Under the pieces are notes generated by a model that was given only the letters and a program-made list of their open reading frames with translations, made no database searches and had not been told where the DNA came from. This document shows, piece after piece, positions 47,068-49,213 of a DNA stretch of 64,000 nucleotides; the stretch's first letter is position 1, and each line of letters opens with the position of its first letter. A program made the translations under genes and the position numbers. Source of the stretch: Escherichia coli (GTDB taxonomy: Bacteria; Pseudomonadota; Gammaproteobacteria; Enterobacterales; Enterobacteriaceae); NCBI RefSeq assembly GCF_024502345.1, contig NZ_JALDNN010000001.1. One strand, written 5' to 3'.

Positions 47068-47336
47068 TGAGTTCAACTGATGGACGCAACACACTTATTG
47101 AACCGTTCTGCGGGTGATTCATAGTCTAGGCTTTTTCTCGGCCTTTCGTTGAGCTGTCTGGCAACACTGTTAAGTCTTTGCTGGCTGTGAACCGATAAGT
47201 CAGTTCCTTTTGAAAATACTGCCTGAGCAATCTGTTTGTATTTTCATTGGAGCCGCGTTGCCAGGGGGATTGAGGATGGCAGAAGTAAACCTGAATATCT
47301 GTGGCTACAGTAAACTGTTGTGGTCAACTAAAACTG
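47068..47336 (-). mobile_element. remnant of a diverged IS30-family element (terminal repeat plus transposase 3' part)
   Basis: About 70% nucleotide similarity to the 3' region and terminus of the intact IS30 at 47650..48871; interrupted at ~47337. Confidence 0.45.
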
Positions 47337-47649
47337 GCCACCTGAACAGAGGTGATATGCTCACCTCAGAACAACACAGGTGCCATAATGAAAAAAAGAA
47401 ATTTCAGCGCAGAGTTTAAACGCGAATCCGCTCAACTGGTCGTTGACCAGAATTACACCGTGGCAGATGCAGCCAGCGCTATGGATGTCGGCCTTTCCAC
47501 AATGACGCGATGGGTGAAACAATTACGTGATGAGCGGCAGGGAAAAACACCAAAAGCCTCCCCCATTACCCCGGAACAAATTGAAATCCGTGAGCTCAGG
47601 AAAAAGCTACAACGTATTGAAATGGAAAATGAAATATTAAAAAAGGCTA
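47337..47649 (+). mobile_element. IS911-like (IS3 family) 5' fragment with partial orfA
   Basis: Left-end-like sequence GGCCACCTGAACAGAGGTGATATGCTCACC and orfA N-terminus [43 protein letters not shown]; cut at 47649 by IS30. Confidence 0.65.
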
Positions 47650-48871
47650 CTGTAGATTCAATCTGTCAATGCAACACCCCTTTCAATTATCTCTTTCGGT
47701 GTTTTGAACTTCAGTGTCTTTCTCGGTCTGTTGTTTAGCTGAGCAGCAACCAGATCTAGTTCATGTTGAGTATATTGGGCAAGACATGTCTTTTTAGGAA
47801 AGTACTGCCGAATTAGCCCATTTGTATTCTCATTTGTTCCCCGCTGCCAAGGACTCTGAGGATCGCAGAAGTAAACTTTAACGCCGGTGCTGACAGTAAA
47901 TTCTAGATGTCTGGCCAGTTCCATTCCTCTGTCCCATGTCAGTGATTTTCTGAGTTCTGACGGTAAACTCAGGAATTTGTCGGTAAGAGCCTGATTTACT
48001 GAGACAGAATCTTTGCCCCTGAGTCTGAGGATGATCGTATAACGTGATTTTCGGTCTACAAGTGTGGCTATATGAGAGTTTTTTGTACCTGAGACTAAAT
48101 CGCCCTCCCAATGCCCCAGAGAGCGTCTGTTATCGATATTTCGGGAACGTTCGTGAATTGGTGTTCCGTTCACTATGTTAATCGTACCTCTTTCGCCTTT
48201 GCGGGTATGACGCCTGCCATGGCGAAGGCTATGCGACCGTCGCAGATGCTGTATATTCAGGTGGTGTAGCGCTTCACGGCTACGAAAGTACAGCGTTTTA
48301 TAAATTGTCTCAGGTGATATTCGCAGCGTTTTTTGACGTGGTTTTGTTCGCCTTAACCATCCTGATATTTGCTCTGGAGACCATTTCATCTCCAGCTTTT
48401 CCAGAACAAGCTTTCGCAATGGTAAATTTTGATCCAGTAAGCACGGTTTTGGCCTTTTCGCCATTCTGTTGGCTCGGTTATTAGCATCAACAGCTTTGTA
48501 ATAGCGTCTGCCCCGATTACGCTGAACTTCACGTGAGATCGTCGAAGGACTGCGATTCAGCGCAGTAGCTATCGCACGAATGCTCATTTTGGCTGACAAA
48601 CCAGCTCGTATCTCCTCGCGCTCAGACAGTGTCAGGTGAGCTACAGCCCGCTTACGCTCATGGGGTTTTATGCCGCCAGTATCCCTTAACATAGTGAAGA
48701 TCGTTCCGGGTTTTGAACCCAGGATATTCGCTATTTCACTGAAGCCTGTTCCGTTCTTCCATAGTTCAAAAACAGAGGCTTTTTCCTCTGCTGTAAATGT
48801 TCGTCTCATTCAAAAAACCTCCGCAACCCCATGTTTTCACATAACTGTTGCGTTGACCAATTGAATCTACA
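47650..48871 (-). mobile_element. IS30 (about 1.22 kb, complete)
   Basis: Terminal inverted repeats TGTAGATTCAAT... at both ends enclosing the transposase ORF. Confidence 0.85.
47658..48809 (-). CDS. insI: IS30 transposase
   Basis: 383 aa with N-terminal HTH and DDE domain. Confidence 0.9.
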
Positions 48872-49213
48872 GTAGCCTTTTTTAATATCGTATTTTGCTC
48901 CTCCAGACGGCGAACCTGCTTTTCCAGCTCGCGGATACGTTGCTGGTCTGGAGTAATGGGTGTGGCAGAGGGCGTAATCCCCTGGCGCTCTCTCCTGAGC
49001 TGGCGTACCCAGCTCTCAAGCGTAGTAGAACCCACATTCATCGCTTCACTGGCCTGTCGATATGAGTAGCCCTTATCAACAATCAGCTGTGCACATTCCA
49101 GCCTGAACTCAGGGGTGAAACTACGTTTGGTTTTCTTGTTCATTAAGTCACCTGTTTTGTGTTGAGGTGAGAATATCACCTTTAATCAGGTGGCCAAATT
49201 TACTGTGCCACTA
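48872..49213 (-). mobile_element. IS3-family (IS911-related) 5' fragment with partial orfA, inverted relative to 47337..47649
   Basis: Left-end-like repeat TGTAGTGGCACAGTAAATTTGGCCACC and orfA N-terminus [46 protein letters not shown]; stops at the same homologous orfA position as the other fragment. Confidence 0.6.

Follow-up and report, generated by a model that had tools for sequence, protein, structure and literature searches.

An intact IS30 between inverted 5' fragments of two IS3-family elements in Escherichia coli is probably a hybrid joint between nested IS30 copies

The nesting of one insertion sequence (IS) in another has been described for IS30 in Escherichia coli K-12, where IS911 is interrupted by IS30A (PMC9333248). 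The same source reports that the hot-spot targets of IS30 are nearly palindromic and that junctions between IS30 inverted repeats (IR-IR junctions) give deletions and inversions by targeting hot spots (PMC9333248). Here, we analyse a 64,000-nt stretch of an E. coli genome (contig NZ_JALDNN010000001.1 of assembly GCF_024502345.1; hereafter, the window) in which an intact IS30 lies between the 5' fragments of two different IS3-family elements, A and B, that face each other. Comparisons with complete genomes suggest that this IS30 is probably a hybrid joint, resulting from an exchange between two IS30 copies that were each nested at the same site of one of the two elements. The joint is made of the following features:

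47316-47650, plus strand: fragment A, the 5' part of an ISEc52/IS911-like IS3-family element, with its terminal inverted repeat and orfA
47634-47650, plus strand: left-hand copy of ATATTAAAAAAGGCTAC (17 nt), which makes up the left half of the hot spot for IS30 and has AC at its end
47651-48871, minus strand: intact IS30 of 1221 bp, with its right inverted repeat (IRR) at the low coordinate and its left inverted repeat (IRL) at the high coordinate
48872-48888, minus strand: right copy of the 17-nt ATATTAAAAAAGGCTAC, starting on the plus strand with GT, the inverted counterpart of AC
48872-49215, minus strand: fragment B, the 5' part of an ISEc31-like IS3-family element, with its terminal repeat and orfA (ATG at 49143), inverted relative to A

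In a closely similar known system, the IS911A::IS30A of the CP4-6 prophage region of K-12, which we read in a K-12-derived genome, the IS30 is at the identical position (…AAAAAAGGCT AC/, where the slash marks the junction), the 5' and 3' flanks are collinear, and AC is found on both sides. It differs from the window in the orientation of IS30, which is opposite relative to orfA, and in the right flank, which in the window comes from the 5' part of another element, in inverted orientation. Two other arrangements resemble one side of the locus each. The ISEc52::IS30 of ATCC 25922, ST131, and many others shows the left junction (A5'..AC/IRR) and the IS30 orientation of the window, but its IRL side runs into AC and the 3' half of A (A3'), whereas that of the window runs into the reverse complement of the 5' half of B (rcB5', with rc for reverse complement). 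The ISEc31-like::IS30 of strains DEC9B and A30 shows the right junction of the window (IRL/GT..rcB5'), but its IRR side is rcB3', with GT on both sides, where the window has A5'. Recombination between IS copies results in hybrid flanks: the direct duplication is lost, and the flanks come from two original sites. Relative to this general case, the particularity of the window would be that its two original sites correspond to one hot spot, occupied in each of two homologous host elements, and the flanks therefore form a perfect 17-nt inverted repeat that makes the locus look more peculiar than it really is.

The central element has the properties of IS30. It carries imperfect terminal inverted repeats that start with TGTAGATTCAAT, the ends being TGTAGATTC...GAATCTACA (in a longer reading, TGTAGATTCAATCTG... 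to ...CAATTGAATCTACA, both of which are present), its length matches the approximately 1221 bp of the family type, and it encodes in a single long open reading frame (ORF) a DDE transposase of 383 amino acids that is uninterrupted in the ORF listing (47658-48809, minus strand). It differs from the IS30A of K-12 by two single-nucleotide polymorphisms (SNPs), identical copies are labelled "IS30-like element IS30 family transposase" in RefSeq, and it is probably active. IS30 is present in 3824 of the 5,426 complete E. coli genomes that we searched, at 9,755 places, and is near-full in 3110 of them. As read at both junctions, the dinucleotide beside the element is AC to its left and GT to its right. 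These dinucleotides are inverted, as the original prediction (a reading of this DNA from its letters alone) had said, and do not make a direct 2-bp duplication. A direct target duplication of 2 bp is the mark of an IS30 insertion event, not of the identity of the element.

A simple insertion of IS30 into one IS3-family element, with contiguous flanks and the normal 2-bp duplication, has in its favour that IS30 does occupy this exact position in single elements elsewhere. Aligned to references and to each other, the two flanks are instead both 5' (orfA) parts, inverted, non-contiguous, and only 66% identical in a global alignment, and with AC on one side and GT on the other they show neither collinearity nor duplication. 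These alignments refute a simple nested insertion, to which we give practically no credence. They also bear out the description given in the original prediction, of an intact IS30 between two inverted and different orfA fragments that stop at the same homologous position: the last 17 nt of A and B (ATATTAAAAAAGGCTAC) are identical and abut, in inverted orientation, the two ends of IS30. The accompanying proposal of a recombination or inversion between IS copies, rather than a simple insertion, is likewise supported, the simple parental insertions with their duplications being known elsewhere.

The position at which both fragments end is the same in intact relatives. An intact A-like element (at locus L007) and an intact B-like one (L006) both read ...ATATTAAAAAAGGCTAC/CGCGCTCTT..., i.e., GGCTAC/CGCGCTCTT, and the intact ISEc52 of L007 reads ...TTAAAAAAGGCTAC/CGCGCTCTTG across the site. 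The hot-spot sequence can thus be written ...ATATTAAAAAAGGCT-AC-CGCG..., with the dinucleotide 5 nt downstream of an A-AAA-AAG heptamer. In IS911, this heptamer is the site of the programmed -1 frameshift; the RefSeq records of these elements state only "programmed frameshift". Simple insertions are found there in A (ATCC 25922: A5'..AC/IRR-IS30-IRL/AC..A3') and in B (DEC9B, within the phage gene gpU, and A30: rcB3'..GT/IRR-IS30-IRL/GT..rcB5'). A third IS3-family lineage, C, reads ATATTAAAAAAAGCC-GC-GGCGTAC when intact, and its 3' half meets IS30 at that dinucleotide, via IRR in 2021CK-01361 and via IRL in CFT073. In Nissle 1917, the 3' half of an IS600-like element meets IS30 at AC/CGCGTAT. 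Overall, the homologous dinucleotide holds IS30 in at least four IS3-family lineages, in both orientations in two of them (A-type and C-type), and this recurrence across lineages indicates that it is a natural hot spot for IS30, as judged by sequence comparison. The ISEc52::IS30 construct in the orientation of the window is covered at 80% or more, which demands at least IS30 and the IRL/A3' junction, in at least 1059 of the 5426 complete genomes, compared with the 3110 that have a near-full IS30; IS30 is thus very often found at this one site of IS3-family elements. The Nissle 1917 copy (L018, NZ_CP058217.1 883189-885679) also shows the reverse nesting: the IS30 in the IS600-like hot spot is itself interrupted after its first 66 bp by an annotated full-length (frameshifted) ISEc52.

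Like the IS3-family site, the LHS site of lambda is a strongly preferred target other than an inverted repeat, with a 2-bp staggered cut. At the coordinates given in PMC9333248, it reads AATAAAAGTGGCGA/TAG, loosely like TTAAAAAAGGCTAC/CG, a resemblance on which we do not rely. In the IS3-family site, 12 of 24 positions fit a palindrome, which is thus only partial.

At this hot spot, the window reads A5'..AC/IRR-IS30-IRL/GT..rcB5'. On the left, it is joined exactly as in the A-type simple insertion and, on the right, exactly as in the B-type one, a combination that points to an exchange between two IS30 copies. This is the reading that we consider probable for the joint. The hot spot, both parental configurations, and the hybrid joint are directly observed, as is, elsewhere, the reciprocal hybrid. 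The sequences around the joint have distinct relatives. The left context (41387-48411) comprises hemB, an ISKpn26 copy, an autotransporter gene, an ISCfr4-like stump, A5', and the part of IS30 that ends at 48411; it matches strain ECONIH4 at 99.8-99.9% identity, and the 841 bp across the left junction (46560-47400) are 100% identical in 15 genomes (ECONIH4 and 14 others). The right context (47650-50017) comprises IS30, the inverted B5', an ORF of 105 amino acids, and a chemoreceptor gene; it matches 2021CK-01361 at 99.83% identity, a strain in which C3', and not A5', lies to the left of IS30. Within IS30, the window differs from 2021CK-01361 at two SNPs (47826 and 48027), at both of which it carries the alleles of the left context, and at none from 48028 onward. 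The pattern would fit an exchange inside IS30 and is suggestive, not decisive.

Several points weigh against this reading. Both of the SNPs that would delimit the crossover also vary among IS30 copies generally. A progenitor in which these outer contexts surround a complete A::IS30 and a complete B::IS30 is absent from the genome collection, and no complete genome joins the left and right contexts (no place covers 80% or more of 46900-49600). Strains C 236-04A and 2273-PO3 carry both contexts far apart, in C 236-04A on the same strand; with the contexts at distant loci, more than one step or a horizontal transfer would be needed. Finally, a one-step rearrangement by the IS30 transposase would yield the same product. 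In such a rearrangement, the nested IS30 would form an (IS30)2 dimer, with its IR-IR junction, and attack the hot spot of another IS3-family element located on that molecule. The joint predicted from the resulting inversion or deletion, A5'/IS30/rcB5' with inverted dinucleotides, is the sequence observed, deletions and inversions from IR-IR junctions are documented (PMC9333248), and the target used is a demonstrated hot spot. The two routes are indistinguishable by sequence; yet both parental simple insertions are seen, the A-type abundantly, so that a second transposition step is unneeded, and the 64-kb window holds no second IS30 or reciprocal joint. We regard the transposase route as a minority possibility, though a real one.

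The same observations bear on whether the joint could be an assembly chimera, in which the hemB-island locus with a truncated IS30 would have been joined, through the 1.2-kb repeat, to the locus with IS30, the inverted B5', the hypothetical ORF, and the chemoreceptor (MCP) gene. The lack of a complete genome with both contexts joined, the two genomes that hold them at separate loci, and the SNP pattern, which is as expected from a join within the shared segment 48028-48411, would all agree with this. Against it, an independent record, LT883139.1, has, on either side of an IS30, A and B alleles 100% identical to those of the window over the parts present, and its right flank starts with the same 14 nt. 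The block from A5' to the inverted B5' is also matched, at 99.8% over its positions 57-1806, by the plasmid of strain G5 (CP060066.1). Furthermore, the IS30 of the left context is cut by an IS66-family element at 48411, and the window lacks the IS66 junction there. The joint is thus probably not an assembly artefact, and we consider a chimera improbable.

The IS66-family element cuts IS30 at the same base (48411/48412) in four of the four left-context genomes examined (ECONIH4, C 236-04A, G3/10, and MSB1_9D; L004, L021, L022, and L023), and the sequence beyond it differs among the four. None of the left-context genomes examined retains A3'. The window, with its complete IS30, may represent an older state of this locus.

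If the joint is a hybrid between nested copies, its formation would have required two steps. In the first, A (ISEc52-like) and B (ISEc31-like) would each have gained an IS30 at the hot spot, with the normal 2-bp duplication, the IRR lying beside the 5' half of A and the IRL beside the 5' half of B. In the second, a reciprocal exchange between the 1.2-kb IS30 copies, approximately 99.8% identical, would have joined A5' to the inverted B5', and the 3' halves of A and B with the intervening DNA would have been removed or relocated. The exchange would most simply be a RecA-type homologous recombination, and an IS30 transposase reaction may also have done it; we infer its type, as well as the passage of the locus through those parents. 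If A was on the plus strand and B on the minus strand, the IS30 copies would have been direct repeats and the exchange a deletion; if both elements were on the plus strand, the copies would have been inverted and the exchange an inversion; and if A and B were on different replicons, the outcome would have been a fusion. Because the same parental types would serve deletion, inversion, and inter-replicon exchange, the 64-kb window cannot tell which of these took place. We found no demonstrable inversion: the three plasmids with a rcB3'-IS30-A3' joint are not among the records with the complete A5'-IS30-B5'inv block (inv for inverted).

Those three plasmids carry the reciprocal hybrid, and other combinations exist. 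The architecture of the window, A5'-IS30-B5'inv, is found with other alleles (L002, L003, and L011), A5'-IS30-A5'inv on plasmid pYLPD4b (L017, NZ_CP074009.1), and rcC3'-IS30-rcB5' at L001. Many places match only approximately 40 nt beside IRR, IS30, and A3'; from these matching parts, we tentatively read them as rcA3'-like-IS30-A3' joints. The A5'-IS30-B5'inv of CAU16175 shares its left neighbours (an AbiJ-NTD4 protein and WP_000227281.1) with the A::IS30 of ATCC 25922, and the two form a second pair of parent and derivative. The IS30 of L017 is 1222 bp long, one additional base having been inserted close to its IRL side.

The repeated occurrence of A5'-IS30-B5'inv raises the question of whether this 1.9-kb block (47316-49215 in the window) is a mobile pseudo-element, with outward-facing left ends of the IS3 family, moved in trans. 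The same architecture, with precise IS3-family termini, is indeed found in at least four other contexts, among them a chromosomal locus at pgaA/GGDEF-rpn, the chromosome of CAU16175, and a plasmid backbone (where it has a VRR-NUC gene on one side and a threonine dehydrogenase fragment on the other). At the pgaA/GGDEF-rpn locus (L002, L008, L009, and L010), TATG is present on both sides of the block. Between contexts, however, the A alleles differ by up to 11% and the B alleles by 4-6%, and those of IS30 by only 0.2-0.4%; this far larger divergence of A and B implies that the blocks formed independently. When the flanks in five contexts were compared, no 3-bp duplication was found around the block in the window, L003, or L011. 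In the TATG case, a synthetic empty-site query found no empty site, the flanks are of unrelated origin, and the match is probably due to chance. Precise block ends are expected in any case, as the outer end of each stump is still that with which its element first inserted. Moreover, the searches were seeded with the block architecture, and the A-A, C-B, and B3'-A3' combinations were found as readily. We have thus rejected the mobilisation of the block as a unit, which lacks 3-bp duplications, an empty site, and near-identical copies across contexts, and we hold it to be very improbable. At the pgaA/GGDEF-rpn locus, the right flank of the block is an rpn gene without its first 25 bp or so, and the left flank follows a transposase gene fragment, IS256-like by eye.

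The two arms that flank IS30 are the sole long inverted repeat that a repeat search found in the window (91 nt, 75% complementarity), and their homology reflects descent, not chance. Fragment A has the features expected of the IS3 family at a 5' end: a repeat that begins with TG (it starts at 47316 with TGTTGTGG...), orfA with its ATG at 47389, whose translation has a C-terminal stretch reading ENEILKKAT, and the A-AAA-AAG (A6G) heptamer at 47639-47645, 5 nt before the end of the fragment. The orfB with the DDE domain, the right end, and a 3-bp duplication are missing, the sequence stopping at 47650; fragment A is a stump, not a complete member of the family. It is 98.2-98.5% identical to annotated ISEc52 and approximately 90% identical to annotated IS911 in the complete genomes, and the ISEc52 copies that match it are annotated with "programmed frameshift" in RefSeq. 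An intact ISEc52 (L007) is bordered by a 3-bp duplication, CCT. Fragment B also has the terminal repeat, orfA, and frameshift heptamer, lacks the 3' half, and has an end that corresponds by homology to that of A. Its identity is 95% to copies annotated as ISEc31, 96.2% to unnamed IS3-family copies, and 100% to a copy in strain ABWA45; an intact relative (L006) has a 3-bp duplication, GAA. The label "IS911-like" that the original prediction gave to both fragments is acceptable in a loose sense, and by DNA identity they are more exactly ISEc52-like (A) and ISEc31-like (B).

The outer tip of fragment A has an unusual composition. Its first 27 nt (47316-47342, TGTTGTGGTCAACTAAAACTGGCCACC) are identical to the right-end repeat of the intact ISEc52 of L007, and not to its left-end repeat, TGAAGTGGTTTACTGAATTTGGCCACC; from GGCCACC inward, A is of the left-end type. 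The 15 genomes with the same left context also have this hybrid tip, and some IS3-family copies, approximately 90% identical (e.g., on O157 plasmids), align to A from its first position. The tip may be a native allele or a mosaic.

Upstream of fragment A lies the remnant of another element:

47052-47315, minus strand: ISCfr4-like IS30-family remnant, with a terminal repeat and the last approximately 80 codons of the transposase, frameshifted

The original prediction had placed a diverged IS30-family remnant at 47068-47336. The remnant is real (tblastn E=1e-22 against residues 303-380 of the IS30 transposase, with 71% and 45% identity), but its inner end is at 47315, the bases 47316-47336 being already part of A (its terminal repeat). 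Its outer end is uncertain, being at 47052 by the blast match and at 47066 by the similarity of its terminal repeat to that of IS30. At the DNA level, it is 95.8% identical to copies annotated as "IS30-like element ISCfr4 family". It was truncated through the insertion of fragment A, and this stump and the two orfA stumps are dead elements. Just upstream of it, an 18-nt perfect inverted repeat at 46963-47037 (CCATAAGGCCTCTACGCG ... CGCGTAGAGGCCTTATGG, with a spacer of approximately 38 nt) may be either a terminator-like hairpin or some repeat element.

Other repeats are found in the wider window. Two direct IS1 copies (50015-50785 and 27320-27994), 95.9% identical over 675 bp, bracket approximately 22 kb with hemB, the autotransporter gene, and the IS nest. 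The right-hand copy truncates the chemoreceptor gene relative to 2021CK-01361, the remainder being the ORF at 49617-50225. Two ISKpn26-like copies of the IS5 family (18692-18991 and 42265-42564), 96% identical, are also in direct orientation, 23.6 kb apart. The start of the window is repeated some 58 kb away, at 94% identity between 1-702 and 58479-59178 and at 90% between 2803-3200 and 60169-60566; the downstream ORFs are large, and these repeats indicate a diverged duplicated gene block. The ORF of the autotransporter (43486-46536, 1016 amino acids) has a Pro-Thr repeat region (45483-45555) that differs in length from that of ECONIH4, as seen in overlapping blast alignments, and the annotated homologues in left-context genomes are about 1049 to 1079 amino acids long.

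For the window itself, the finding is one of routine scrambling by IS30 and IS3-family elements in a heavily IS-scrambled E. coli genomic island, and its relevance is mainly for annotation. The joint marks a rearranged spot in the hemB-adjacent island, so the order of genes to its right should not be assumed ancestral, and it is a likely site of misassembly in short-read data. The mildly new point is the consistency with which IS30 is found at the frameshift region in elements of the IS3 family. The single case in K-12 is known, and its generality across lineages and the role of nested copies as substrates of recombination may be undescribed; we found no generalisation to several IS3-family lineages in the literature that we searched, and we do not claim novelty. 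We are evenly divided on the broader proposition that IS30 systematically targets the frameshift region common to the ISEc52/IS911, ISEc31-like, unnamed, and IS600-like lineages, and that the nested copies shuffle islands and plasmids as portable homology. If it is true, a large share of the IS30 copies of E. coli would lie inside disabled IS3-family elements, and the shuffling would leave a recognisable class of joints (5'-IS30-5'inv, 3'inv-IS30-3', and mixed). Every hybrid to be expected from exchanges between nested copies is produced, and this provides a simple rule for reading many of the "odd" contexts in which IS30 is found without target duplications.

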